Below are positions 1 through 15,713 of a stretch of 64,000 nucleotides of DNA, in pieces. The notes beneath the pieces were generated by a model. It worked only from the letters and a program-made list of their open reading frames with translations, did not search any database and had not been told where the DNA came from. The stretch comes from Spirochaetes bacterium RBG_16_49_21 (GTDB taxonomy: Bacteria; Spirochaetota; UBA4802; UBA5550): NCBI GenBank assembly GCA_001829495.1, contig MIBJ01000068.1:46560-110559 (forward strand), given 5' to 3'. A program made the position numbers and the translations under genes. Position 1 is the stretch's first letter; the number at the start of each line of letters is the position of its first letter.

Positions 1-748
1 CCTCGGCCATCTGGCTGCGCGCGCTGTTGTGCACGCAGAGGAAGAGGACTCCGCGGATATTTTTCTTCGCGCTTTCAAGCGATTCCCGATGGCGCACGTC
101 CCTGCCCCTGGTCATGTAGATGACGAGCTCGGCCAGGTTTTTCACGTGATCGCCCATGCGCTCGATGTTTTTTATCACCGCCTGTATATTCATCGCCTCG
201 AAGGTGTCGGCGGGATCGTTCTCGATGATCTTAAGGGAGGCGCGGAATATCTCCGCGTAATGAGCGTCAAGCAACGCGTCGCGCTCGATTATCTTTTCGG
301 CAAGAACCGCGTCTCCGCCGACAAAAGCCGTCCTCGCGTCGTCGAGCATGGAGCGCAGGATGTCGCCCATCGCGAGTAAATCGTCGGGCAAACGCCGGCC
401 GCCGTGACTCGCACATTCCCCGGCTCTCTTGCAGATGGTAACCGCGTGATCGCCGATCCGCTCGATGTTCGGAACAAGCTTGAGGACCGCCACGAGAAAA
501 CGCAGGTCCGACGCCACGGGCTGCTGCTTGGCGAGCACCGATACGCAGAGGTCGTCGATCTCGAGCTCCAATTCATTGACCTCCTCTTCCAGGCGCATCG
601 TTTTTTTCGCGAGCGGGATATCATTATTGATGAAGGCGCGGATGCCGTCGGACACCATTGCCGCGGCCTTTTCCGTCATGGTGATCATCCGGTCCCGTAT
701 CATGTTGAGCTGGGCCTGATATTCGCGGTCCGTATGCTGGTATGCCAT
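1..748 (-). CDS. phoU: PhoU phosphate-signalling protein fused in frame to a C-terminal ArsC/LMW-PTP domain (3' end outside window)
   Basis: Missing from the ORF track because it has no stop codon. Manual translation from ATG 748 gives MAYQHTDREY...QQPVASDLRFL...IERIGDHAVTI...IERMGDHVKNLAELVIYM (two PhoU repeats), continuing without a stop into NIRGVLFLCVHNSARSQMAE (CX5R P-loop). Last gene of the pst operon. Confidence 0.93.
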   Translation of the reverse strand, partial: MAYQHTDREYQAQLNMIRDRMITMTEKAAAMVSDGIRAFINNDIPLAKKTMRLEEEVNELELEIDDLCVSVLAKQQPVASDLRFLVAVLKLVPNIERIGDHAVTICKRAGECASHGGRRLPDDLLAMGDILRSMLDDARTAFVGGDAVLAEKIIERDALLDAHYAEIFRASLKIIENDPADTFEAMNIQAVIKNIERMGDHVKNLAELVIYMTRGRDVRHRESLESAKKNIRGVLFLCVHNSARSQMAE

Positions 749-782
749 ATACTATCCCCGTTTTTTATTATTTTCGGCCGTA

Positions 783-1619
783 TCATCCGAACCGGCCGGT
801 TATATAATCTTCTGTTCTCGTTTTATGGGGCGACTTGAACAGAGTATCCGTATCGCAATATTCCACGAGCTCTCCCATATAAAAGAACGCGGTGTAATCC
901 GACACCCGTGCGGCCTGCTGCATGTTGTGCGTGACTATGATGATCGTGATGCCCCCGCGCAGGGAGTGAATGAGGTCCTCTATTTTCGCGGTTGCGATGG
1001 GATCGAGGGCCGAACAGGGCTCGTCCATGAGCAGAATCTCGGGCTCTATGGCGAGCGCCCGCGCTATGCAAAGCCGCTGCTGCTGTCCTCCCGAGAGGCT
1101 CGTCCCTGGTTTGTCGAGAACGTCCTTTACCTCGTCCCACAGCGCGGCCTGCCGGAGCGAGCGCTCCAGCACGTCGTCGCCGGCGCTCCCCCGCGTTCCC
1201 TGAAGCGGTATCCCGGCGAGAACGTTATCCTTCACCGACATCATGGGAAAGGGATTGGGCTTCTGAAACACCATGCCGATCCTTCTGCGAAGCATGACGG
1301 GATTGACCTTCGGGTCATATATGTCTTGTCCCGCGAAATACACGGATCCGGATACGCGCGCGCCGGGTACGCCCTCGTGCATGCGGTTGAGGGTTCGTAT
1401 GAACGTAGATTTTCCGCATCCCGACGGGCCGATGATCGCCGTGACCGCGCCCGCGGCAATTAAAATATCAACGCCCTTGAGCGCCATCAGGGAGCCGAAC
1501 CAGGCGCGCAGAGCAACGGTTTTTATAACCGCGGCCCCGTCCCGGATGCCGGTATAATCGCGGCGGTCTTCGTCCCCTCCTTTCTCTTTATGACCTGATA
1601 TCGGTTCGATTGTTTCCAT
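783..1619 (-). CDS. pstB: Phosphate ABC transporter ATP-binding protein PstB
   Basis: Walker [10 protein letters not shown], signature [24 protein letters not shown]-terminal [10 protein letters not shown] typical of PstB. Confidence 0.97.
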
Positions 1620-1644
1620 GGAACAACCCCTTCTCCGTCCGGTT

Positions 1645-2526
1645 TTAATCGATTCTCCTCTGCAGCCTGTATCTCAACGCTATGGCAAGGCTGTTCATAA
1701 GAATCATGATAACGAGCAATACTATTATACCCGCCGCGGCATTGACGTGAAAATCGCTCTGAGGGCGCGAAATCCAGTTGAATATCTGCACCGGCAGGGC
1801 GGTGAACGGGCTCATAACGGAATCGGGCAGAAAGGCCACATAGGTAAGCGCCCCTATCGTGATAATGGGCGCTGTCTCGCCGATTGCCCTGGACAGGGAC
1901 AGGATGACGCCCGTGAGAATTCCGGGAAGGCTTAAGGGGAGTACGATTTTCCGAATCGTCGTCCATTTGTCGGCGCCCAGGGCATAGGCTGCTTCGCGAA
2001 GGTCCCCGGGCACCATGCGCATCGATTCCCTGGCGGCCATGATTATCATGGGAAGCACCATGAGGGAGAGCGTTGCCGCTCCGGCAAGGAGGCTTCGCCC
2101 CATGTTCATGAACCGCACGAAGAGCCCCAGGCCGAGAAGGCCGTAAATAATGGAAGGAACGCCCGCCAGGTTGCTGATGTTTATTTCGATGAAGGCCGTG
2201 ACCGCGTTTTTCCCTGCGTATTCCTCCAGGTAGATCGCGGCCCCGATTCCCAAGGGCAGGGCTATCGCGGCGGTAAGGATCATGAGAATCGCGCTTCCCG
2301 CAAGGGGGGAGAGTATCCCGGCCCGGGCGGCGAAGCGCGAGGGAAAGCCTGTCAGAAAATCCCACCCCAATCTGGGTAATCCGTCGACGGCCGTGTCGAT
2401 GAGCAGCACCGCCAGTATCACGAAGGGAACCATGACCGCCAGCGCCATGATCGCCTTAAAGGCTTTTTCGATCTTCTCATCCATCGCCCGGAAGGAGAGG
2501 TCCTGCGCGATTCCTTTTTTTCTCAT
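1645..2526 (-). CDS. pstA: Phosphate ABC transporter permease PstA
   Basis: [26 protein letters not shown] loop, SRAIGETAP; operon position. Confidence 0.95.
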
Positions 2527-3434
2527 TACAATGCTCCTTTTAGGAGTTTCCTGCGAAGATAGAGCGCAAGAAGATTAAAAGCCAGCGTCATGACGAACAG
2601 CATCGCTCCCACGGCGAAGATCGTGTTGTATTCCAGCGTCCCGTGGGGAGTGTCGCCGAGGCTCACCTGCACGATGTAGGCGGTCATGGTCTCTATGGGG
2701 ACCCGCGGGTCCAGCGTGAGAACCGGCTGCTGGCCGGCGGCGATGGCAACGATCATGGTTTCGCCTATGGCGCGCGATATTCCCAGGATAAAAGAGGCGG
2801 CGATTCCCGAGAATGCGGTGGGGAGTATGACGTGCCGGATGGCTCGGAGCCTGTTGCTCCCGAGGGCGATCGCTCCCTCGCGGAGGGAGGCGGGCACCGA
2901 GTATATGGCGTCCTCGCTCAAGGAGGCGACGATGGGGGTGATCATGATCCCCATCACCAGACCGGGACTCAGGGAGTTAAAGCCGGCCAGCTCCGGGATG
3001 AATCCCTGCAGCAGGGGCGTCACAAAAGTGAGAGCGAAATAGCCGTACACGACGGTGGGAACGCCGGCGAGCACCTCGAGTACGGGCTTTAATATCCTCC
3101 TTAGCCTCTCCGGCGCGAACTCGCTTAGAAAAATCGCGATCAGTATCCCCATGGGTACCGCGACTATCATTGCGAAGAAACTGGTGAGCGCGGTGCCGGC
3201 AATGAGCGGCCATATTCCGAAATGCTTTTGATCAAACAGCGGCGTCCATTGCGTGTCGAAAAAAAACTCGCTTAAGGGAACCTGCCTGAAAAATTCAACG
3301 GTCTCGAAGAAGAGCACCATGATAATTCCCGCAGTGACGGCAACGGACATCGCCGCGCACGCGAAAAGCGCGGCGGATATCCATCGTTCCGTAAGAGAGC
3401 GGCTCTGGAGCAGATCCGGTTTGCGGTTGTCCAT
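2526..3434 (-). CDS. pstC: Phosphate ABC transporter permease PstC
   Basis: [25 protein letters not shown]; operon position. Confidence 0.95.
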
Positions 3435-3447
3435 GATCTATTCCGGT

Positions 3448-4455
3448 TTATTTCTTTTTAAGGAGCTCCTCAACGGTAACGCCCACCTTCGATCCCGAAA
3501 ACACCGTACCCGTTACACGGTCGCTTACGCGCTTTGCCGCCAGTTGATAGGCGCCCTGGGGAAGGGGAATATAACCCACCTGCTTTGCGAGCTGCGGCAC
3601 GTTTTTCAAATAGAACTCGACAAAGGCCCGTACCTCCGGTTTTTTCTCCATGGATTCCTTTCGGACATAAATAAAAAGCGGACGTGAGAGGGGCTGATAA
3701 GTGCCCTTTCTAACGGTTTCCTGCGAAGGCCGTATCGGGCCCCTGCCGTTTCCAGGCTTGCCGTCGTCTACCGCCACCAGCTTCAGCTTGTCCCTGTTCT
3801 CCTCATAATACGCCAGCCCAAAAAATCCCAGCGCGAACTTGTCGCCGGCGATACCCTGGACCAGGACATTGTCGTCCTCACTTGCAGTGAAGTCACCGCG
3901 GCTGGAATGCTCCTTGCCCACGATAGCTTCGGTGAAATAATCATAGGTGCCGCTGTCGGCCCCTGCTCCGTAAAGATGGATGTCTTTATCCGGCCATCCC
4001 GGGCGGACCTGGCTCCATTTCATGATCCTTCCCTGCGCCTCCGGCTCCCAGAGCTTCTTAAGCTCGGCGACGGTCATGTAATCGCACCAGTCGTTCTGCG
4101 GGTTTATCAAAACCGCCAGACCGTCATACGCCACCGGTATTTCGATGTACTCGATTCCCTTTTCAACGCACCTGTCCTGCTCGGTTTTTTTTATCGGGCG
4201 CGACGCGTCGGAAATATCGGTCTCCGCCCCGCAGAATTTTTTGAATCCGCCGCCGGTGCCCGATATGCCCACGGTGACGCGTATACCTTTGTTCGATTTC
4301 TGGAATTCCTCCGCCACCGCTTCGGTGATGGGATACACGGTGCTCGACCCGTCGATCGAAATCGTGGCGGCCGGATTTTTCCCGCACGCTACGGCGAAAA
4401 GCGCTGCAAACGCAATATTGATCGTCATTGAAATTCTAAGCGGTCTTTTTTGCAT
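3448..4455 (-). CDS. pstS: Phosphate-binding lipoprotein PstS
   Basis: Lipobox [44 protein letters not shown]. Confidence 0.95.
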
Positions 4456-4741: not shown

Positions 4742-5986
4742 ATGATTGAGAATATGATGAAAATTAAGAAAGGAGGGCCAGGCCGCTGGATCGGTCTTGC
4801 CGAGGCCCGCGCAATCTGCTTCGATAAAACGCCGCTTATTGATAAAGAAGAGGTGCACATTATCGATTGTTCCGGAAGAGTCGCGTTCTGCGATATGACC
4901 GCCATAGTCAATTCTCCATCCGTCACCGCCTCACTCAAAGACGGATACGCCGTACATTCATCTGATGTCGCTGCCGCCTCGCGGCAAAACCCGATAAGGC
5001 TTGTCCTCTCCGGTACTTCGGCGGCGGGCGACTCGGGAACAGGACCGCTGGCCACTGGCTGCTCGGCCCGAATACTTACCGGCGCGCCGCTGCCCCAGGT
5101 GGCCGATGCGGTCGTTTCTCAGGAATTCGTCAATGTACAAGACGGATTCGCACTATTCACCGCCGATGCGGATCCCGGCAGGAACGTGCTGGTGGAGGGC
5201 GCCGACGTGCGAATCGGCGAAATAATTCTTCGCAGGGGAGAAATCCCGACTCCCGGGCGTATAGGCTTGCTGGCGGCGGCAGGCGTATCAACCCTGCCGG
5301 TATACCGCATGCCGCGAATACTTCTTATAGCCACAGGCGATGAGATCGTGGAACCGGGCACGCCGCTGAAAAAAGGGGGGCTCTACGCAAGCAACCTGGT
5401 GACGCTTGCTTCATACAGCGTTTCGCGCGGACTTCATGCGGACATGCGAATAGTGAGCGACTCGCCTGAATATCTGAAACAAGCCATCACCGGTGCGAAT
5501 GGGCCCTACGACGCTCTCTGTATCATAGGCGGGGCCTGGGACGGTGACAGGGACTTTACCATGTCGACGCTCGATGAACTCGGATGGGAGCCGTATTTCA
5601 GAAGGGTGCGCATGGGGCCTGGAAAGGCGGTGTCATTCGGCCGTTTGGGAGGCAAACCGGCATTCAGCCTGCCCGGAGGTCCGCCGTCGAACCATATCGC
5701 ATTTCTTCAACTGGTACTGCCGTCCCTTTTGCACATGGGAGGGCATATGCCGCCATATCTTCCTCTCGTGCGGGCGACTCTTACCGAAGAGGTCTCCGGT
5801 CAGGAAGACTGGACCCAATTTATTCACGCAAAGCTTTCCAGTGAAGAGGGTGAATTGAAAGTAACGCCCCTCCGCTCGAAAAGCCGGCTCCGGGACATGG
5901 CGGATTGCGACTCTCTCATTGAAATTCCGGAAGGAAAGACACGCATTGAGCGGGCAAGCATTATTGATGTTCAAAGGATAGTGTAA
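4742..5986 (+). CDS. moeA: Molybdopterin molybdotransferase MoeA
   Basis: SLKDGYAV, RILTGAPLP, ATGDEI, MGPGK...SLPGGP motifs of the MoeA/gephyrin-E family. Confidence 0.92.
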   Translation: MIENMMKIKKGGPGRWIGLAEARAICFDKTPLIDKEEVHIIDCSGRVAFCDMTAIVNSPSVTASLKDGYAVHSSDVAAASRQNPIRLVLSGTSAAGDSGTGPLATGCSARILTGAPLPQVADAVVSQEFVNVQDGFALFTADADPGRNVLVEGADVRIGEIILRRGEIPTPGRIGLLAAAGVSTLPVYRMPRILLIATGDEIVEPGTPLKKGGLYASNLVTLASYSVSRGLHADMRIVSDSPEYLKQAITGANGPYDALCIIGGAWDGDRDFTMSTLDELGWEPYFRRVRMGPGKAVSFGRLGGKPAFSLPGGPPSNHIAFLQLVLPSLLHMGGHMPPYLPLVRATLTEEVSGQEDWTQFIHAKLSSEEGELKVTPLRSKSRLRDMADCDSLIEIPEGKTRIERASIIDVQRIV

Positions 5987-6497: not shown

Positions 6498-7808
6498 TCA
6501 GAAATAATACCGTGCGCGTAGATCCCACCGATGGTCGGCCGGTTTTTCACCGAATTCAGAATTCCTGCCTCCCCACAAAAATGCATATCTGAATCGAAGC
6601 TCGAGATTATTTACTCCTGTATAAAGCAATTCAGGCGTCAGGCTGAAACTCAAATCGTCTATGTTGAACATCACGGTAAGCGCTGGGGTAAAGTAGAGAA
6701 TGTCAAAGGGCTCCTTCTGGCTGACGCGCAAATACAGATAGTTTTTCATGGGAGTGAATCTACCGTAGGCGCCTTCAGTCAGCGCCTCGGCCGCTCTGAA
6801 CGGCAATTCTTTTAGAGTAGCGCGATATGTATAATAAGCCTCATTAATCAGGAAATAATAACTGCGCATCTCGGACACCGACATGCCGGATGCATTATGA
6901 TAATATTCGATGATGACGGTGGTCTCTATCTCCGTCAGATAGCGTATGCCCCCAAGAGCGGCGATTGCGTTGATTTTCCGTTTTCGCGCCATGCCCGTAG
7001 TTCCAAGGGAAAGCTTTGTTATTCCGGGCAGATATGCGAATTCTCCGTGAACCTCCAAATTGGTCGTGATGTTCCTCGACACGTCGATCCCCAACCTGTA
7101 GTTATTCTCCAACCCAGTAAAAAAAAGAAAGTCGATGTCCGTATCGAAAAACAGGAGATAGAGCTTGCCTGCAAAATACCAATGCCCGGCCCCGCCGAAA
7201 TTTTCATTAATACCCTTGTAAACGGGCACGACAACGGGTGTAAAAGAAAGGGTTTTAAGGGGCCCGGTGAAGCTGGCGATGAAGTCCGCGGTCGCGACCG
7301 TGTATCCCTCATACGCGAGCTCCGGATCGTCCGGGTTTTTCGGCCGGTCAACGAAGGCGACCGGATTCCAGGCGTATCCCTTCCCCCATTTCAGTGTCTT
7401 TTTGCCCGCGTCGATAACCACATGCTGGTTCGGCTTGAGAGAAGCGTATCCTTCATAGAGACGCAAATCAAACGGCCACCGGCGGTTTGAATATCCAAAT
7501 GCTTCGTATGCCCTGGCAAACGCCTTGAATATGCCCTTTTCAAACGTTAATTCCGGCTGAAGTCTTAAATACGCGTCCGCGTATGGACTGCCGGGATTGT
7601 TCTGGTAATATTTTAAACGAAAAAGCGCGCTCTTCAAATCGGCTATATACAGCGAGGGGAATAATTCAACATACCCGCCGATCGAAAAGGGTTTTTTTTC
7701 GACCTCAGATTCTTCGAATTTGAATTCATTATCATCTTCAGCGTAAATTCTTAATGCCATGCCCGCCAGCGCCGCGCAGCCTAAAGTAAGAATAATGAGA
7801 AGCCTCAT
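6498..7808 (-). CDS. Exported outer-membrane beta-barrel-like protein accompanying the ABC/LolA-like module
   Basis: Signal peptide, GKKTLKWGKGYAWNPVAFVD motif, amphipathic strands, C-terminal RYYF (BAM-type terminal Phe). Confidence 0.7.
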   Translation of the reverse strand: MRLLIILTLGCAALAGMALRIYAEDDNEFKFEESEVEKKPFSIGGYVELFPSLYIADLKSALFRLKYYQNNPGSPYADAYLRLQPELTFEKGIFKAFARAYEAFGYSNRRWPFDLRLYEGYASLKPNQHVVIDAGKKTLKWGKGYAWNPVAFVDRPKNPDDPELAYEGYTVATADFIASFTGPLKTLSFTPVVVPVYKGINENFGGAGHWYFAGKLYLLFFDTDIDFLFFTGLENNYRLGIDVSRNITTNLEVHGEFAYLPGITKLSLGTTGMARKRKINAIAALGGIRYLTEIETTVIIEYYHNASGMSVSEMRSYYFLINEAYYTYRATLKELPFRAAEALTEGAYGRFTPMKNYLYLRVSQKEPFDILYFTPALTVMFNIDDLSFSLTPELLYTGVNNLELRFRYAFLWGGRNSEFGEKPADHRWDLRARYYF

Positions 7809-8565: not shown

Positions 8566-9802
8566 CTATACGTGCCTGAGCGCTTCCACCGGCTCCATCC
8601 GCGACGCTTTATATGCGGGATAGAACCCGGCCGCAAGGGACACGGCGAGCACCGTGATCGTTATCGCCACGGTTTCCGGCGCGCTCAATGACGCCCTCAG
8701 TACAAGCCCCTGCTGCATTCCGAAATTAAAGGTGATCCCCGCCGCATTGACGATGATGATGATAATGGCCCCGATAACGACTCCCGCGATCGACCCGGCC
8801 GCGCCGAGAAGGAACCCCTCGGTAATGTACATGTACAGAATCTTTTCGGGAAGCGTCCCGATAGCGGCGATCGTACCGATTTCACGGATGCGCTCATACA
8901 CCGCCATCATCATCACGTTCATGATGCTAATGAGCACGATGGCGACCAGCATTATTCTGACAAACTGGGTCATCACGTCGATCATTTTTGCGATATTCAC
9001 GAAAGGAGAAAGCCCCTCCCATGTATGCACCTCATAAACCGGTTTTCCCCCGCTCGATAAACCGGCTAACTCCTTTTTGATGCTTTTTTCAAACGAGCCG
9101 AGCTTGTCAAAATTTTTTACGCGAACGGCCACCTCGCTCACCTCGGCTTTTTCCATGCGAAGAAGCTCGACCGCATCGTCAAAATTAATATATCCGTCCC
9201 TGCCGCCGGGCCCGACCACGCTGCTTAAGATCCCCGACACGGTGAATTGCATGCCGTTGACCGAGCCGTCCCTGTTGGTCGCGACAATAACCACGGCATC
9301 GCCCGTCTTGACGCGCATGCCCTGCGCCAAAAGCTCGGGCACCAGTATTTCCCCTCTTTTGAGAGAGTCGCTTCCCGCTGTTATCCTTTTTGTCAGCAGC
9401 GGCGTTGTTTTATATTCTTTGTCGGGATACACGCCGTTTAAACGAATATTGGTCGTTTCCGCGAAATTGCTGAACATACCGGCGAACTTGATGCGGTGAG
9501 AATATGCCTCCACCGCCCTGTTCTTTCGTAAAACCGTTTCAACTTGCATAAACTGCTCCATGCTCAGCGTGAGATTGAGCGGCAGATTTTCTATGGAGGC
9601 GACGTATCCCTTTCGGTGGATCTGCGCGTGGCCCGAGCATCGAATCCGTGATCTGCCCGACAATCATGTTTTTAAACGATCCCGAGACGGCAACATAGAC
9701 CACGACAAAAACGACCCCCAGGGTAATGAGGGACGACGTCAAAAGGGTCCGCCGTTTGTACCGTATCAGGTTGCGTACGGCAATTTTAATTATGCTTCGC
9801 AT
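8566..9802 (-). pseudogene. FtsX/LolE-like ABC permease with a single +1 frameshift at ~9633 (possible sequencing error)
   Basis: The 5' part (IAVRNLIRYKRRTLLT...ITDSMLG) and 3' part (HAQIHRKGY...ERIREIGTIAAIG...PAYKASRMEPVEALRHV) are in different frames. Removing one G from CTCGGGCCAC joins them. Confidence 0.8.
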
Positions 9803-10520
9803 GGGCTTTCCCCCTTTTCGTTTTTGCGCGCTTCTTTATCGTTTTCCTTTGTGTTATCAGGCCGTCCTCCAGCGAATATATGATTTCGGCCTCTCCCACG
9901 ATCTTCTGATCATGCGTGGAGAAAATAAACGAGGTCCCGAATTCGTCCCTCATCTTTCTCATGATCGCTATGACGCGGTACGCGGTGTCATGATCGAGGT
10001 TCGCCGTGGGCTCGTCCGCCAGCACGATCTTCGGATTCGTCGCCAGGGCTCGGGCGATGGCAACCCGCTGCTTCTGCCCGCCGGATATCTGGTCCGGATA
10101 CTTCCCCTTCTGGTCTTCCATGCCGACTTCGGCGATGAGCCTTCTCACGCGCTCCCTCCTCCTGGCGGGCGGAATGTTCTGAACCATCATCAGGGGGTAT
10201 TCGATGTTCTCAAAGACTGTCAGAACCGGTATCAGGTTAAAATCCTGAAAAATGAAACCTATCCGCTCGCCGCGAAACGCCGCCCGCTCCCTTCTGGTGA
10301 GCTTCGATATGTCGGTTCCCTCGATTATGACGCTGCCTCCGGTGGGCACGTCGAGGCATCCGAGAATGTTCAGCAAGGTCGTCTTTCCGCTTCCGGACGG
10401 CCCGATGAAGGAAATAAACGACGACGGGTCGATTGTGAAGGTCAGTCCCTTGAGCGCCGGCACGGTTATCTCTCCGGCCGTATAGTTCTTTTGCACGTTA
10501 TCGGCGGTAATAAGTTTCAT
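9786..10520 (-). CDS. ABC transporter ATP-binding protein (LolD/MacB-like)
   Basis: [37 protein letters not shown]. Confidence 0.93.
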
Positions 10521-10567
10521 AATCTCTCCCGTTAGAGCGGCTTACAGCCTGCGCTTTCATACTTTTC

Positions 10568-11239
10568 TCATTTGCTTTGGTTCCTGAGGCGCTCCATAAT
10601 CTCCTTCGCTCTTTTTACCGCTTCCTGTTCTTTTTCATCAGACGGCACGCACCATGGTTGGGTGACCTGCCATGTCAGCGAACCGGAGAGAGGGGGTTCC
10701 GGGTAAGCGCCGGCATCATGCACCGTGTAGCCCATGAATTCCACGGGATTCTCCTGGAAGCATGACCATACCGCCTTTCGCATGATTTCCGGGTCGCCCT
10801 GAAACTGGAGATCGATGAGCATCACCTGTTTTCTGAACCGCTCGATGAATTCCGCCGGAACATTGTACAGGAACGGATGAAGGGCGTCGGTGCCGATGAT
10901 CTTCTTCTTTTCGTCGACGCCATTTGCCATAAGGGCCTTTAGCGCTTGTCCGGTCTGATGGCCCTCGGATTCCGGTCCGCCAAGAATTAAATATCTGATA
11001 TTCGGATTGGCCACGACGTTGCAGATAATTTTTTCGAAGCCGATATTGGGCGTCTGCAGCGTGCCGGAGAGGGCAGCGCCGCTTTCCGCGCCAGCACGGA
11101 CCAGGCGCTCGATCTCAGGCGGGATTTTATCCGCATCGGTGTTGAGGATGATCGCAACCGCGACCGGGGAAAAATCGTTTCCCCGGATGTACCTCCCCTC
11201 TTCCGGGGGATAATCGGGATGCGGCTTTACTTTTAACAT
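10568..11239 (-). CDS. Stand-alone MtrA/MtxA-family corrinoid-binding protein (soluble, no C-terminal membrane anchor)
   Basis: YPPEEGRY..GNDFSPVAV, GTLQTPNIGFEKIICNVVANPNIRYLILGGPESEGHQTGQALKALMANGVD...IIG...FIERFRKQV matches the methanogen MtrA core, including the cobalt-ligating His (GHxTGQ). Confidence 0.85.
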   Translation of the reverse strand: MLKVKPHPDYPPEEGRYIRGNDFSPVAVAIILNTDADKIPPEIERLVRAGAESGAALSGTLQTPNIGFEKIICNVVANPNIRYLILGGPESEGHQTGQALKALMANGVDEKKKIIGTDALHPFLYNVPAEFIERFRKQVMLIDLQFQGDPEIMRKAVWSCFQENPVEFMGYTVHDAGAYPEPPLSGSLTWQVTQPWCVPSDEKEQEAVKRAKEIMERLRNQSK

Positions 11240-11241
11240 GG

Positions 11242-12285
11242 TTATGAAAAAAATCTCCTCCTGAAAAAAAGCGCCACGTTCACAAGCCCGATAAGCACCG
11301 GCACCTCCACCAGGGGCCCTATGACCGCGGCAAAGGCAACTCCGGAACCGATGCCGAAAACCGCGACCGCGACCGCGATGGCAAGCTCGAAGTTATTACT
11401 CGCGGCAGTGAACGATAGCGTCGCGGAAACGCAGTAGTCCGCGCCTATTTTTTTGCTCATGTAAAAGCTCAGCAAAAACATGACCACAAAATAGATGAGA
11501 AGCGGTATGGCGATCCGTACGACATCGAGCGGTATCTTTACAATGTACTCGCCCTTCAGGCTGAACATGACCAGGATCGTAAAGAGAAGCGCGATTAGGG
11601 TCATGGGGCTGATCTTCGGGACGAACCTCGTCTGGTACCATTCCTTGTTTTTAAGCTTGATAAGCGCGAAACGGGTTATTATGCCTGCAATAAACGGTAT
11701 GCCTAGGTAGATGAACACGCTTTCTGCTATCTGGCCGATCGTTACGTCCACCAGTACGCCCCTCAGGCCGAAAAGCGGAGGGAGCACGGTTATGAAAAAC
11801 CAGGCATACACGCTGAAAAAGAGCACCTGGAATATGCTGTTGAAGGCCACGAGCCCGGCCGCGTATTCAGCGTCACCGCAGGCCAGGTCGTTCCACACGA
11901 TTACCATGGCGATGCACCGCGCCAGGCCGATCATGATAAGGCCCACCATGTATTCCGGATATCCGGCGAGGAACAGGATCGCGAGGAAAAACATGAGCAC
12001 CGGGCCGATGACCCAGTTCTGAACAAGGGAGAGCCCGAGGACCTTCCAGTTTTTAAACACGTCGCCCAGCTCTTCGTATTTGACCTTGGCCAGGGGAGGA
12101 TACATCATGAGAATGAGGCCGATGGCAATGGGAATGTTGGTAGTGCCGACCTGAAACCGGTTCCAGAACCCTGCCACGCCCGGATAGAAATAGCCCATGC
12201 CCACGCCAATGGCCATAGCCAGGAATATCCAGAGGGTGAGAAACCGGTCGATAAAAGATAGCTTTTTACCTTTCGCTTCAGACAT
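11242..12285 (-). CDS. acr3: Arsenite efflux transporter Acr3
   Basis: [58 protein letters not shown]: diagnostic Acr3 motifs. Confidence 0.97.
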
Positions 12286-12345
12286 GACAGCCTCCTCAAA
12301 AGTAAAAATTTATGGCCTGACCAATATTGTGCCCTTCCTTAATCC

Positions 12346-13047
12346 TCACGGTAAAAAAACAAGATATAGTCCGCCCAGGATCACGAGCACACCGCAGGCT
12401 TTTTTGAGAATGACCGCGCCCCGCGATTTTTCGTTCCAGTTAAGATACCGTTGAACTACCTCGGTGAAGGTGCCCGCGAGCACTATGACCGAGCAATGCC
12501 CCGCCGCGTAAGCCAAGATGAGGGATATCGCGAAGACGACTTTCGTGTGCGCTACGCTGAACACAATGCCGAGCATGGGCGCCATGTAGGCGAAGGTGCA
12601 GGGCCCGAGAGCGATGCCGAAGACGAGGCCCAGAATGAGCGCAGCGAAAAGGCCCTTTTTCTTAAAATTCGGATTGGCGCTCCTTTCAAGAAAAGGCAGA
12701 GGAATGACGCCCAACAGGTGGAGCCCGACAATGAAAAATACTACAGCCACGATATAGTTGCCCCATCCGCCGATATCGCCCATCATGCGGCCCATGAGGC
12801 CGGTGATGAGGCCGATAATGCCGATGGTAACAAGAATTCCGACGGCGAACAGGAGCGCCAGAATAAAGGCCCGTTTCGTACTCATGCTTCCCTGCTCGTC
12901 GATGAACCCGATGATGAGGGGTATACTCGCCAGATGGCAGGGCGAGAGCAGGATGCCCGCGATCCCCCAGAGGAAGGAGCCTGCCAGGGCGATGCCCGGC
13001 GAGGACGAGAGCATGGCGCTCATTGCGTTGAAAAAATCGGCAAGCAT
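12346..13047 (-). CDS. ccdA: CcdA/DsbD-family transmembrane electron transporter
   Basis: Six TM segments with LSPCH and GPCT redox cysteines. Confidence 0.88.
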   Translation of the reverse strand: MLADFFNAMSAMLSSSPGIALAGSFLWGIAGILLSPCHLASIPLIIGFIDEQGSMSTKRAFILALLFAVGILVTIGIIGLITGLMGRMMGDIGGWGNYIVAVVFFIVGLHLLGVIPLPFLERSANPNFKKKGLFAALILGLVFGIALGPCTFAYMAPMLGIVFSVAHTKVVFAISLILAYAAGHCSVIVLAGTFTEVVQRYLNWNEKSRGAVILKKACGVLVILGGLYLVFLP

Positions 13048-13565
13048 CAGCGGACGCCTCCTTTTTCAAGCACCTGCTCCAACTCCTCAAAGGGGAAGTA
13101 TCCGAGGTGCCGAAAATACTCCTTCCCGTTCCGGTCAAGGAAGACCTGGGTGGGTATAGCCTGTATACCGTATTTCTGGCCGTAGGGCCTTCCTTCCGGG
13201 GTCCAGATATCGTAAAATATTACCTTGACCCGGCTTCCGTATTTTTGCTCGATTCGCCGCATCACCGGCTGCATCATTCTGCAGGGGATGCAGTTGACTG
13301 AGCCGATTTCGATAAACGTCACCATGACGCCCGGTGCGGCGCCTTTTGTGTCCCCGTGCCCGGTATTTTCATGTTTGGTCGAATTCTCGTCCACCGCCGC
13401 CGGGCCGGTCGGAGCCTTTTCCCCGCCGCAGCCGAAAACGCCGCCGAAAAAAGCGAGAGGAAGCGTCAATGCGCCGCTTTCGCAAGGGCAGTTTCGCGCC
13501 CTGCCCCAGATCATCGCTGCGGCAGCGATCACAGCGAGAATTATAAGCCTTTTAGCGAGCTTCAT
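13047..13565 (-). CDS. Exported or membrane-anchored thioredoxin-fold protein
   Basis: Start at MKLAKR (RBS GGAGGAG); hydrophobic N-terminus with CPC and FGC; CIPC active site and cis-Pro motif AIPTQVF. Confidence 0.85.
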   Translation of the reverse strand: MKLAKRLIILAVIAAAAMIWGRARNCPCESGALTLPLAFFGGVFGCGGEKAPTGPAAVDENSTKHENTGHGDTKGAAPGVMVTFIEIGSVNCIPCRMMQPVMRRIEQKYGSRVKVIFYDIWTPEGRPYGQKYGIQAIPTQVFLDRNGKEYFRHLGYFPFEELEQVLEKGGVR

Positions 13566-13582
13566 GCGCGTATCTCCTCCCC

Positions 13583-13794
13583 CTACACGACGCCGACACG
13601 TTTCAAGTTCTTCCGCGCGCATGCAATGGGACACCCGTCCAGGTGATGTTCACTTCCACTCCCGCAAGACAGGTCTTTTGCGCGAAGCCTTCCTTCCATA
13701 GTTTCCGCATCGCCCTATCTGCCAGTTCCCCCACGTCAGCCGCGCCTGAACATGAATACAAAAGTCTAACTCCTTCGTAACAGCAATCAGCCAT
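13583..13794 (-). pseudogene. DGC-domain (zinc-binding) protein, frameshifted and shortened
   Basis: MADCC...LLYSCSGAADVGELADRAMRKL...TCLAG; after a 1-nt shift near 13642 it continues DGCPIACARKNLKRVGVV*. The linker before DGC and the C-terminal third appear to be missing. Confidence 0.75.
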
Positions 13795-13822
13795 GATTCT
13801 TCCCCATAAAATAATTTTAGTT

Positions 13823-14923
13823 TTAATAAATCAGATTAAACACATATCCTACGATCATGATGCCGACGGCGACGACACTGACGAATATGAAAATTAAGGG
13901 CAATTTAAGTACTTTTTTCAATATAATCATCTCCGGCAGTGAGAGACCTATGACCGACATCATAAAGGCAAGGGTGGTTCCGAGCGAGGCCCCCTTTTCA
14001 AGAAGGGCCTGAACGACCGGAATGATGCCCGCCGCGTTAGAGTACATGGGCACGCCGATAATGACCGCCAGTGGAATTGACCACCACGCCGATTTGCCCA
14101 TGATGGACGCCATGAAATTCTCCGGCACATAGCCGTGAATGCCTGCGCCGACGCCGATCCCGATCACTATATAAATCCAGACCTTTGATACAATCTCAAT
14201 AACTGCGACATATCCGGCCTGAATCCTTTCGGTAAAAGTCGTTTTTCTTTCTTCTATTTCAAGTTTGCCCGCTTTTATTTCATGTACCCATTCTTCGACA
14301 AAGCGTTGGACTTTAAGCTTACCAATGATCCAGCCGGAGAAAATTGCGATAATAAGGCCGGTGGAGGCATATAAGAAGGCGGTTTGCCAGCCGAAAAGGC
14401 CGAAGAGGAGCACGAGAGCGACCTCATTAATCATAGGGGCGGCCACCAAAAAAGAGAAGGTGACGCCCAGGGGGATTCCGCTTTCCATGAAGCCCAGGAA
14501 TAGCGGTATCGCAGAACAGGTACAGAAGGGCGTTACGATCCCGAGCGTGCTCGCCATGATATTCCCGACGAGCAGGGGCTTTCCTTCGAGGGCCCTGCGT
14601 GTTTTTTCAGGTGAAAAATAAGAGCGGATGATCCCGACGATGAATACAATGAACGTCAGAAGAATAAGCACCTTGGGAACTTCAAACATAAAAAAGCGGA
14701 TCGCCTCGGTGAGATGGGAATTTTTATCCATACCCAGCATGGAATACATGATATAGTTGACGCCGCTTTCAAGAAAAATATAAAGAACGATCCCGATGGG
14801 AGCGAGCAGCAGCGGTAATACAGTCCTGATTTTAATATTTTTCCTCCCGGTTTGCGGGACCGCATTTAAGTCTATATTATTTTGAACATAATATTCATTC
14901 ATGAATAAATTCCCGGTGTTCAT
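13823..14923 (-). CDS. arsP: ArsP-family (DUF318) permease
   Basis: LGIVTPFCTCSAIPLF, LVAAPMINE, GVPMYSNAAG, GLSLPEMIIL; located in an ars cluster. Confidence 0.88.
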   Translation of the reverse strand: MNTGNLFMNEYYVQNNIDLNAVPQTGRKNIKIRTVLPLLLAPIGIVLYIFLESGVNYIMYSMLGMDKNSHLTEAIRFFMFEVPKVLILLTFIVFIVGIIRSYFSPEKTRRALEGKPLLVGNIMASTLGIVTPFCTCSAIPLFLGFMESGIPLGVTFSFLVAAPMINEVALVLLFGLFGWQTAFLYASTGLIIAIFSGWIIGKLKVQRFVEEWVHEIKAGKLEIEERKTTFTERIQAGYVAVIEIVSKVWIYIVIGIGVGAGIHGYVPENFMASIMGKSAWWSIPLAVIIGVPMYSNAAGIIPVVQALLEKGASLGTTLAFMMSVIGLSLPEMIILKKVLKLPLIFIFVSVVAVGIMIVGYVFNLIY

Positions 14924-14927
14924 TGTA

Positions 14928-15173
14928 TCAGGTCGGTTGCCCGACGCTGATCCATTTTTTTATTTCATCTTTGGCCGGAAGTTTCCCCGCAACCTTCACC
15001 ACGCCGTCAACTACAAGGGCTGGGGTTGCCATAACACCATAGTTCATGGTGGACTGTATGTCAGTGACGTGATTTATATGGGCTTCTATGCCCGTTTCAT
15101 GAACCGCCTCTCTGGTCAAGGCTTCCAGCTTGTGGCACTTGGCGCAACCGCTGCCTAATATCTCGAGTAACAT
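14928..15173 (-). CDS. Small redox-active disulfide protein (thioredoxin-like, MTH895 type)
   Basis: EILGSGCAKC...YGVMATPALVVDG; typical ArsP partner. Confidence 0.9.
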   Translation of the reverse strand: MLLEILGSGCAKCHKLEALTREAVHETGIEAHINHVTDIQSTMNYGVMATPALVVDGVVKVAGKLPAKDEIKKWISVGQPT

Positions 15174-15280
15174 AATTTGTTCTCCTTAAATTATTTTATT
15201 CATTATGCAATGAATCGCATTCCTTAATTAATATTAATTATCTTTTCTCCTCTCAATACGGGCACACTATTAGTTTTATA

Positions 15281-15304
15281 ATATTTGAAAAAATTGCCAA
15301 ATAT
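15281..15304. promoter_or_regulatory. Putative ArsR operator 2
   Basis: ATATTTG-N10-CAAATAT inverted repeat between arsR and the thioredoxin gene; shares ATTGCCAAATAT with the reverse complement of the site at 15676. Confidence 0.6.
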
Positions 15305-15317
15305 TACAAACAAATAA

Positions 15318-15677
15318 TCACCGTTTCGTTTTACAGGCCAAAAGTATCTCACCCTGCTGCCTCGCGTTTGACTCAATGACATCCTCCAAACAGCCGAAAA
15401 ATCCGAGGATACAGGGCGTCCGTAAATAATAAAAAATATTGTTCCCCGATCTCTTGTCGCCGATCAGGCCCGCGTTTTTCAGCACCGAAAGATGCTTCGA
15501 GACCGTTGATACGTCCGCTCCGATCATGTCGGTGAGATCGTTCACGCACCGCTCTCCCTTCTCGAGCTCTTCGATGATAAAGAGCCGCGAGGGATGGGCA
15601 ATGGCTTTTATGATCTTAGCCCGCGCCTCGTACTGCATCTTTTGCGTCGCCGTAAGCTGGCTTTTTAATATTTTCAT
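15318..15677 (-). CDS. arsR: ArsR/SmtB-family repressor
   Basis: KAIAHPSRLFI..ERCVNDL..STVSKHLSVLKNAGL HTH; C-terminal PCILGFFGC cysteine pair; start at 15677 follows a -35/-10 pair. Confidence 0.9.
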   Translation of the reverse strand: MKILKSQLTATQKMQYEARAKIIKAIAHPSRLFIIEELEKGERCVNDLTDMIGADVSTVSKHLSVLKNAGLIGDKRSGNNIFYYLRTPCILGFFGCLEDVIESNARQQGEILLACKTKR

Positions 15678-15713
15678 ATTTGGCAATATGGCAAAATATC
15701 CAAACATTGTCAA
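15676..15713 (-). promoter_or_regulatory. Leaderless arsR promoter overlapped by operator 1
   Basis: Minus strand TTGACA-17-CATATT-7nt-ATG; imperfect palindrome ATATTTGGCAATATGGCAAAATAT at 15676-15699. Confidence 0.65.

Follow-up and report, generated by a model that had tools for sequence, protein, structure and literature searches.

A cluster of eight minus-strand genes, following one another with short gaps or overlaps by their open reading frame (ORF) coordinates, fills positions 10568-15713 of the 64,000-nucleotide stretch of Spirochaetes bacterium RBG_16_49_21 DNA analyzed here (contig MIBJ01000068.1; hereafter the window; Table 1). The last of the eight, and the subject of this report, encodes a 223-residue protein with an MtrA-type fold. 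It starts directly behind the gene for the arsenite efflux permease Acr3: only two bases separate the acr3 stop codon TAA from the ATG of the MtrA-like gene. An earlier note on this DNA had described this junction, together with a same-strand row of arsR, a CxxC thioredoxin, a permease, a DGC remnant, an exported thioredoxin, ccdA and acr3, and both the junction sequence and the profile matches bear that description out. The host genome (83 contigs, 94.7% complete) contains a single MtrA-family gene, a single Acr3 gene and a single ArsP_1 gene; all three lie within this cluster, making chance adjacency very unlikely.

Table 1. The ars cluster and flanking features of the window, with the profile matches that identify them.
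Feature	Position	Strand	Evidence
ArsR/SmtB-family metalloregulator (opens the cluster)	15318-15713	-	PF01022 HTH_5, E 2.6e-13; NF033788, 80 bits (cut-off 55)
Small CxxC thioredoxin-like protein, MTH895/ArsE family	14928-15173	-	PF13192 Thioredoxin_3, E 9e-28; TIGR00412, 104 bits (cut-off 62)
ArsP_1-family permease, 366 aa	13823-14923	-	PF03773, E 8.3e-75
DGC-domain remnant, 63 aa, truncated and frameshifted	13603-13794	-	PF08859, profile positions 1-39 of 106
Exported thioredoxin, CIPC motif	13047-13634	-	Thioredoxin_2, E 6.4e-12
CcdA/DsbD_TM-type membrane protein	12346-13047	-	PF02683, E 1.5e-11
Acr3 arsenite efflux permease	11242-12285	-	TIGR00832, 455 bits (cut-off 282.8)
MtrA-fold protein, 223 aa, soluble	10568-11239	-	PF04208, E 1.1e-37; NF002126, 200.2 bits (cut-off 161)
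ABC ATPase, 47 nt downstream of the MtrA-like gene	9786-10520	-	PF00005, E 1.7e-34
436-aa ORF between the LolA-like gene and divergent moeA	6498-7808	-	no Pfam match at E ≤ 0.001
PstS-PstC-PstA-PstB-PhoU phosphate transporter operon	2-4455	-	

The 223-residue protein matches PF04208 alone among Pfam families (129.7 bits against a cut-off of 25), and its best solved relative is PDB 5LAA, a cobalamin-bound cytoplasmic MtrA homologue from Methanothermus fervidus (E 4.9e-34). An AlphaFold2 (AF2) model calculated from a 39-row alignment has a mean predicted local distance difference test (pLDDT) score of 92.7, and all seven Foldseek matches at E ≤ 0.001 are MtrA chains, the best being 5laa_B (E 2.2e-17; target-normalised template-modelling (TM) score 0.94). 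The motifs NPNIRYL and GHQTGQ are both retained, as the earlier note had seen, and in a HMMER alignment His94 falls on His84 of 5LAA and Asn65 on Asn55. According to the available text on the 5LAA structure, His84 is the cobalt ligand, Asn55 bonds a propionamide and Glu54 hydrogen-bonds the histidine (PMC4915002); His94 is the predicted cobalt ligand here. The C-terminus of the AF2 model is a charged helix (residues 202-222); a membrane anchor is absent, as the earlier note had seen, and the protein lacks the hydrophobic tail carried by the canonical MtrA rows of our alignment; it also has no signal peptide. The label "methanogen-type MtrA" given in the earlier note does not survive, as the protein misses the TIGR01111 mtrA equivalog by a wide gap (122.4 bits against a cut-off of 249.15) and, as described below, branches apart from membrane-bound MtrA. 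It also differs from the two other obvious candidate types: its only corrinoid-related domain is PF04208, not the Cys-ligated CFeSP/CdhD-type domain that, together with a membrane domain, defines HgcA, and it contains no SAM-dependent (S-adenosylmethionine-dependent) class I methyltransferase domain of the ArsM kind. Judged by sequence and predicted structure, the protein is thus a soluble, His-ligated cobamide-protein fold and not a methanogen MtrA subunit. In its fold and predicted ligand histidine it bears the hallmarks of a His-on cobamide protein, with proline in place of the histidine's glutamate partner, and we predict that it binds a cobamide.

Relatives of this protein are numerous. 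A word-indexed protein search returned 3477 proteins at E ≤ 0.001; among the 120 listed, all are 222-243 residues long and 74-83% identical to the query (the window's own protein excepted), and those that are named belong to Spirochaetota, Anaerolineales and other metagenome-assembled genomes (MAGs). An exhaustive search of representatives clustered at 50% identity gave 791 matches at E ≤ 0.001, 54 of them at E ≤ 1e-30. With one genome per species, we collected 67 loci at 61-82% identity. Their bacterial hosts are Spirochaetota, Chloroflexota (Anaerolineae and Dehalococcoidia), Actinomycetota, Desulfobacterota and Nitrospinaceae, and their archaeal hosts are Methanosarcina, Methanoregula, Methanolinea and other Methanomicrobiales (MAGs), so that the family is found in anaerobic lineages of both domains. 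Of 401 genomes sampled in the host phylum, 19 have the gene, as do 6 of 13 other genomes of the host genus, a patchy spread that marks it as an accessory, transfer-prone gene. A protein-mode search of a plasmid collection yielded only four distant matches (35-42% identity), none of them ars-linked; three are annotated as DUF4346-domain proteins and one lies in an unannotated record.

In a FastTree phylogeny of 70 domain sequences (Shimodaira-Hasegawa-like (SH-like) support only, midpoint root), a split with support of 99 parts the 223-residue protein from the membrane-anchored MtrA rows, and the protein falls inside a group of 32 rows supported at 97. Across an alignment of 59 family members the ligand histidine (His94) is kept in 58 and Asn65 in all 59, with hardly any variation in the NPNIRY and G-H-x-T-G motifs. 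Two cysteines are equally constant: Cys73 in 58/59, with alanine at this position in 5LAA, and Cys160 in 58/59, the latter being kept in canonical MtrA as well. His121 replaces Ile111 of 5LAA in 52 of the 59. Compared with canonical MtrA, members have ~11 extra residues inserted behind the first long strand, and their C-terminus is lengthened by a conserved, family-specific stretch of ~50 residues. The position of Glu54 is more variable (43 members have Glu, 4 have Ala, and 12, the window's protein among them, have Pro); we considered a Glu-to-Pro change at position 64 as a defining feature of the family and rejected it, since most members keep Glu.

We then examined the neighborhoods of the 67 loci. 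Four partial matches (L064-L067) were excluded from ORF analysis, leaving 63 loci, and two more with no ORF kept over the match (L049, L051) from neighbor counts, leaving 61. ORFs shorter than 70 residues were not called and small thioredoxins are under-counted for that reason (directly upstream of the gene in L014, for example, a Trx3 was seen by tblastn alone). The commonest ORF clusters in the 63 loci are ArsR (24), ArsP_1 (24), Acr3 (21) and DGC (15), followed by CcdA (9), exported thioredoxin, ArsE-type thioredoxin and radical SAM/SPASM proteins (8 each) and LMWP ArsC-type proteins (6). Defining specific ars markers as Acr3, ArsP_1, DGC, ArsE-type thioredoxin, LMWP ArsC, ArsA or ArsD within five genes, we found at least one in 34 of 61 loci: ArsP_1 is among them in 23, Acr3 in 15, and the two occur together in 9. 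The immediate same-strand upstream gene is ArsP_1 in ten loci, Acr3 in seven, DGC in two and Trx3 in one. Gene order varies: the Spirochaete locus L003, for instance, reads ArsR-ArsD-(IscA-like)-ArsA-x-Acr3 before the MtrA-like gene. This variation indicates that the linkage to ars genes has survived rearrangement. In 25 loci no ars-type gene at all lies within five genes (here counting ArsR, CcdA and thioredoxins as well), and these loci share no other conserved partner; among their 72 flanking ORFs, the commonest families are MFS (4), radical SAM (3) and phage integrase (2). The single isolate represented in our loci, Desulfoferrobacter suflitae DRH4 (L061), carries a copy without ars linkage.

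The host genus gives a finer-grained view of the same association. An Acr3 match is present in 15 of 17 genomes, and the MtrA-like gene lies immediately downstream in 8 of these 15, with a small thioredoxin between the two in some loci; in the remaining 7 the gene is not within the 1.5-kb acr3 flank. The MtrA-like gene is therefore an optional add-on to acr3 in this genus. As an independent sample, metagenome contigs were scanned using P0129, a longer, distant relative of 425 residues, which gave 80 loci. Seventeen encode stand-alone proteins of 227-246 residues that are 51-61% identical to the window's protein; 12 of these lie inside ars clusters, and the other five are on contigs of only 1.0-4.9 kb. 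One of the 12, L193, reads ArsR-ArsP-[gene]-ArsC-ArsM-Acr3-Trx3-DGC-Trx-CcdA, and similar clusters occur in L194, L198, L199, L204 and L205. The remaining 63 loci hold a long form of the protein (40 fused, 18 split into a ~213-residue domain and small Cys-rich ORFs, 5 partial), and only 2 of these 63 have any ars-like match nearby, with Acr3 or ArsP_1 in none. The linkage thus belongs to the short, stand-alone subfamily, in which it extends down to ~50% identity. Association of stand-alone homologues with acr3, arsP and arsR, which the earlier note had put forward as a check, appears in all three samples: the genome loci (34/61), the metagenome loci (12/17) and the acr3 loci of the genus (8/15). 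Overall, the family is a recurrent and so far undescribed member of ars clusters across several phyla and both domains. Our literature search, covering titles and abstracts, found no description of an MtrA-family gene in ars operons and no ars function for MtrA, in agreement with the earlier note.

The neighbor counts also bear on a second proposal of the earlier note, that thioredoxin and CcdA supply reductant to the corrinoid. We find no support for it. The MtrA-like protein has no signal peptide, while an exported thioredoxin and a CcdA-type protein would be expected to move reducing power outwards, and these two genes accompany the family in fewer of the 63 loci (CcdA in 9, exported thioredoxin in 8) than do ArsP_1 (24) and Acr3 (21).

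Other genes recur beside some members of the family. ArsF-family genes, encoding a nitroreductase subunit, stand beside ArsE-type thioredoxins in L001, L002, L004, L194, L199, L204 and L205 (the ArsF at L001:8098-8514 scores 104 bits against the NF040494 cut-off of 60), adding to an organoarsenical theme in these clusters; the window contains no ArsF gene. In the closest relatives (L001:10685-14446, L003:6102-9871 and L016:6006-7355), two paralogous radical SAM/SPASM genes follow the MtrA-like gene, their best model being the tungsten-cofactor maturase TIGR04317 at 270 bits, below its cut-off of 380. A CoA-disulfide-reductase-like flavoprotein comes after the SPASM pair; SPASM genes are found in 8 of the 63 loci and the flavoprotein in 3, and neither gene type is present in the window.

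Several members of the same 97-supported clade are fused to redox domains. P0131 joins a 2x[4Fe-4S] ferredoxin to the MtrA-like domain, and P0135 joins the MtrA-like domain to the CFeSP-type iron-sulfur (Fe-S) domain PF04060. In P0273 the MtrA-like domain is connected through its own linker to an LMWP ArsC-type reductase, an architecture found on two contigs from four sources, and an LMWP ArsC gene is adjacent to the MtrA-like gene in L004, L037, L193 and L194. A further apparent fusion of LMWP and MtrA-like domains, P0145, was discarded as a likely frameshift or gene-call artefact, as its middle reads as out-of-frame sequence.

Beyond this clade, the MtrA domain occurs in a variety of architectures. 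In eight proteins with 38-51% identity (P0162, P0165, P0177, P0179, P0181, P0191, P0209 and P0216), it is joined to a thymidylate-synthase-like or DUF4346 "pterin-binding" domain, which points to further uncharacterised corrinoid or one-carbon (C1) enzymes. In P0271 (473 residues) the MtrA-like domain is duplicated in tandem, and the L127 contig bears two copies, at 497-1153 and 4963-5652. In the long form (L127-L189) the domain is fused to, or precedes, one or two copies of a helical, Cys-rich domain of ~120-145 residues with no Pfam match, forming a compact module of two or three genes without ars linkage; a protein search with the Cys-rich C-terminal domain of P0129 (residues 215-425) gave no usable match. 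A TusA domain at the N-terminus, as in P0126, is an occasional addition.

Within the window's cluster, the permease preceding the DGC remnant had been named ArsP. Its assignment to the ArsP_1 family stands, placing it in the family of the methylarsenite exporter ArsP; it reaches no NCBIfam equivalog cut-off (the best, SaoE, scores 139 of a required 325 bits), and it is therefore only a putative ArsP proper. Full-length DGC homologues align by tblastn over only about the first 77 of their own residues, with a change of frame near 13650, and the half that would bear the DGC motif is missing. Such decay among intact neighbors suggests that this lineage can do without the DGC protein. The exported thioredoxin probably starts at a methionine 23 codons into the called ORF, before a hydrophobic N-terminal segment, and the CcdA-type protein weakly resembles the ArsG family (NF040495, 46 bits, below the cut-off of 200). 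A tblastn search with the genome's own ArsM-like protein found no arsM in the window, as the earlier note had stated; the ArsM-like gene itself lies elsewhere, on contig C25, and scores 194.5 bits against a cut-off of 263.

Downstream of the cluster, the gene for the ABC ATPase is possibly co-transcribed with the MtrA-like gene. The 47-nt gap between them (10521-10567) contains no terminator-like site in a promoter/terminator scan, which we used for this gap only, as its counts were near those of shuffled sequence (15 versus 9.7±3.2 and 14 versus 10.9±3.2). Genes for an FtsX-type permease and a LolA-like protein follow. The ABC ATPase is not a conserved neighbor of the family, and related loci give only weak, generic ABC matches. 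Farther along lie the 436-residue ORF and the phosphate transporter operon listed in Table 1, and just left of the window, after pstSCAB-phoU and ~10 kb from the cluster, are two LMWP (ArsC-type) genes (G000:C68:45783-46608). Together, the ars cluster, the pst operon and the LMWP genes resemble an arsenic/phosphate island of ~16 kb. We had considered that the MtrA-like gene might replace arsC; the two nearby LMWP genes weaken this idea, and no glutaredoxin-type ArsC was found when we checked it.

The rest of the host genome is rich in corrinoid proteins. It encodes 16 B12-binding-domain proteins above cut-off, one RACo activase, and CFeSP genes with an adjacent pterin-binding gene that is probably a methyltransferase. 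MtrH (PF02007) has no match in this 94.7%-complete genome; for subunits B-G no individual searches were made. On contig C45 (L209:674-2365, minus strand), an arsR-like gene (116 residues), an hgcA-like gene (360 residues, its product ending in a membrane domain) and an hgcB-like 2x[4Fe-4S] ferredoxin gene (93 residues) stand in a row, and the hgcA-like protein contains what we take to be an NVWCAAGK-type motif. This arrangement makes the host a putative mercury methylator with ArsR-linked hgcAB.

Published work sets the frame for a function. Anaerobic demethylation of arsenic has been ascribed to methylotrophic methanogens and corrinoid-dependent methyltransferases, with no enzyme identified in the available parts of these sources (PMC10579292; bioRxiv 10.64898/2026.08.27.747368). 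Methylcobalamin-dependent arsenic methylation in methanogens is described as a side reaction of MtaA in the accessible text of another study, which names ArsI as the sole known demethylase (PMC13262295), and a list of ars genes from 2022 holds no corrinoid protein in its available part (PMC9144182). Regions around hgcAB are flanked by acr3, arsC, arsM and arsR in diverse genomes, as far as the available text reports (PMC7438021). For Pseudodesulfovibrio mercurii ND132, the part of the preprint at hand reports that an ArsR-like, arsenic-responsive regulator controls hgcAB and that an ArsR-ArsP-ArsE-DGC operon responds to arsenic with higher expression (bioRxiv 10.1101/2022.10.17.512643).

We propose that the ars-linked MtrA-like protein carries out cobamide-dependent methyl exchange with arsenic, in one direction or the other, a reading to which its predicted cofactor site and gene neighborhoods lend slightly better than even chances. 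In this scheme the cobalt would cycle between Co(I) and methyl-Co(III), swapping a methyl cation directly with arsenic in a reversible Challenger step, CH3-Co(III) + As(III) <-> Co(I) + CH3-As(V). Our preferred, though tentative, reading of the net direction is demethylation, which taken alone we would still hold to be less probable than its alternatives combined. Here Co(I) would strip the methyl group from imported pentavalent methylarsenicals, the resulting arsenite would be pumped out by Acr3, encoded 2 nt upstream, and the methyl group would then enter the general C1 machinery of the cell (in this host, CFeSP with its pterin-binding neighbor, and RACo). ArsI is an oxygen-dependent dioxygenase, and the protein would be its oxygen-independent counterpart. 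We favor demethylation because the family occurs in anaerobes, where ArsI cannot work; because the gene is translationally coupled to an arsenite pump and adjacent or fused to ArsC in other loci; and because its neighbors include the organoarsenical-related ArsP_1 and ArsE, with ArsF in some loci, and its hosts include methanogens.

A number of observations weigh against methyl exchange, or against this direction of it. The attack of Co(I) on methyl-As(V) is chemistry that we arrive at by reasoning and not from a cited experiment. Two methyltransferase activities are normally required to serve a corrinoid domain that stands alone, and we recognised no MtrH-, MtaA/B- or MeTr-type partner beside the gene. 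In the window's protein, the residue equivalent to Glu54 (position 64) is proline, and 27 of the 61 genome loci, many of them on short contigs, have no specific ars marker. ArsM-like genes share an operon with the MtrA-like gene in L060, L049, L192, L193, L200 and L205, and an ArsM beside a demethylase would make a futile pair. Across the host phylum, an ArsM-like gene is present in 7 of 19 genomes with the MtrA-like gene and in 81 of 382 without it, which indicates neither exclusion nor dependence and does not settle the direction. Co-occurrence with RACo at first looks helpful (17 of 19 genomes with the gene versus 102 of 382 without); we rejected it as support, since it mostly reflects phylogeny (6 of 7 versus 22 of 32 inside the host family).

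The closest competitor keeps the cobamide protein and reverses the reaction, making it an HgcA-like arsenic methylase independent of ArsM: C1 enzymes would generate methyl-Co(III), the methyl group would pass to As(III) or to methylarsenite (MAs(III)), and the product would leave through the ArsP_1 permease. That permease is indeed the most constant neighbor of the family and its commonest immediate upstream gene (the ten genome loci above, and L193, L194, L198, L199 and L204-206 in the metagenome set), His-on ligation suits the transfer of a methyl cation to a nucleophile in B12 chemistry, and the clade includes ferredoxin and Fe-S fusions. The available texts on the MtaA side reaction in methanogens (PMC13262295), on ars-flanked hgcAB (PMC7438021) and on the arsenic-responsive regulator of hgcAB (bioRxiv 10.1101/2022.10.17.512643) offer a biochemical precedent and an analogy with HgcA and HgcB. 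Such a methylase would duplicate ArsM, which is encoded in the same operon in at least six loci and elsewhere in the host genome, and the host has an arsR-hgcA-hgcB row of its own; a step that produces As(III) would account at least equally well for the coupling to Acr3 and for ArsC as neighbor or fusion partner. We regard methylation as slightly less probable than demethylation. The same fusions also hint at an input of electrons, which would suit another reading: a cobamide-dependent protein that carries no methyl group and instead drives Co(I)-dependent reduction of pentavalent (organo)arsenicals, or binds and shields cobamides while thiol- and B12-dependent enzymes come under arsenic attack. 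In favor of such a role, the gene sits after acr3 where arsC often sits, an LMWP ArsC is its fusion partner (P0273) or its neighbor, no methyltransferase partner is nearby, and the host is a heavy user of cobamides. It seems unlikely to us, given that two LMWP ArsC-type genes are already present ~10 kb away on the same contig and that no corrinoid protein is known to us to act as an arsenate reductase. The characterised MtrA-fold proteins discussed in the accessible part of PMC4915002 are, moreover, all methyl carriers.

Two further explanations dispense with arsenic-directed cobamide chemistry. The protein could have lost its cofactor and become an arsenite-binding chaperone or regulatory partner of Acr3 and ArsP_1 that works through conserved cysteines, as ArsD does for ArsA. 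In 17 of 61 loci a permease gene stands immediately in front of its own, Cys73 and Cys160 are each kept in 58 of 59 members (with alanine in place of Cys73 in 5LAA), and in the window's protein proline replaces the glutamate partner of the ligand histidine. The near-invariance of the histidine, Asn65, NPNIRY and G-H-x-T-G is hard to explain without a cofactor; Glu is kept in 43 of 59 members, Cys160 is shared with canonical MtrA, the conserved cysteines number only two, and the ferredoxin and Fe-S fusions fit a redox cofactor. All this makes a cofactor-free chaperone very unlikely in our judgment. Least probable of all, and in our view scarcely credible, is that the gene serves an unrelated C1 metabolism and merely rides on mobile ars islands. 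Its patchy, transfer-like spread (19/401 in the phylum, 6/13 in the genus), identities of 61-82% across phyla and domains, and the 27 of 61 loci lacking a specific ars marker are what a hitch-hiker would show. The linkage, however, is seen repeatedly with the genes arranged differently, it spans five or more phyla and methanogens as well, and it shows up in both of two sets drawn independently. Loci without ars genes keep no other conserved neighbor, and an ArsC fusion and a start codon 2 nt behind the acr3 stop are not expected of a passenger.

The novelty of the family is that a known kind of protein, the MtrA fold, appears in a new functional setting, the ars operon. Whether it amounts to a new ars gene, in which a protein-bound cobamide reacts directly with arsenic in oxygen-independent demethylation or in ArsM-free methylation, is to our minds an evenly balanced proposition. 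Methylated arsenic in flooded soils governs straighthead disease of rice and the arsenic content of the grain, and the family provides a concrete and easily testable candidate for anaerobic arsenic methyl transfer, bearing on an open question of arsenic biogeochemistry. If the proposal is right, it would account for the long-sought oxygen-independent demethylation of arsenic in anoxic soils, sediments and methanogens, and would supply a metagenomic marker for arsenic methyl cycling as well as a new ars gene. It would also correct the annotation of thousands of anaerobes, in which the family is misnamed "tetrahydromethanopterin S-methyltransferase subunit A", and would add a second corrinoid system dedicated to a toxic element, evolved independently of HgcAB. 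The parallel with the still puzzling association of hgcAB with arsenic genes suggests that corrinoid chemistry on arsenic may be an old and general theme.

Comparison with known systems places the protein nearest to MtrA. With 5LAA and the soluble MtrA domain from the MtrA-H complex (5L8X, 8Q3V) it shares a Rossmann-type fold (TM 0.92-0.94; 36-37% identity), the cobalt-ligand histidine, the asparagine and the NPNIR motif, and it is soluble like the 5LAA protein. Unlike MtrA, it forms a separate clade, scores below the equivalog cut-off, is found in ars operons and not in an mtr operon, and comes from a genome in which no MtrH was found; unlike 5LAA, it has Cys73 for Ala, His121 for Ile111 and, in the window's protein, Pro for Glu54. 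The bacterial hosts of the ars-linked family are not known to use tetrahydromethanopterin or coenzyme M.

The resemblance to HgcA and HgcB is one of setting: a corrinoid protein and a ferredoxin (fused in P0131), a toxic soft element, an operon without a methyltransferase, and neighboring ars genes, HgcAB being described in the available texts beside acr3, arsC, arsM and arsR and under an ArsR-like regulator. HgcA itself combines a CFeSP/CdhD-type domain, a Cys ligand and a membrane domain, whereas the corrinoid domain here is unrelated (PF04208 only) and its predicted ligand is a histidine. CFeSP with RACo offers a model of a corrinoid methyl carrier that must now and then be reactivated by reduction, and its Fe-S domain PF04060 is present in one clade member (P0135); its corrinoid-binding fold is a different one, and the window's protein has no Fe-S domain. 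If methyl transfer is the correct reading, the protein and ArsM would both be methyl handlers of ars operons, with no relation in sequence or fold and with a cobamide in place of SAM. Under the preferred direction it would fill the same role as ArsI, converting methylarsenicals to arsenite for export, through an entirely different fold and chemistry. At the level of the operon, the first half of the cluster has the same domains (PF01022, PF03773, PF13192 and PF08859) as "operon C" of P. mercurii ND132, whose description mentions no MtrA-like gene in its available part; the window's version retains only a remnant of DGC and carries, behind acr3, a candidate enzyme for arsenic methyl exchange.

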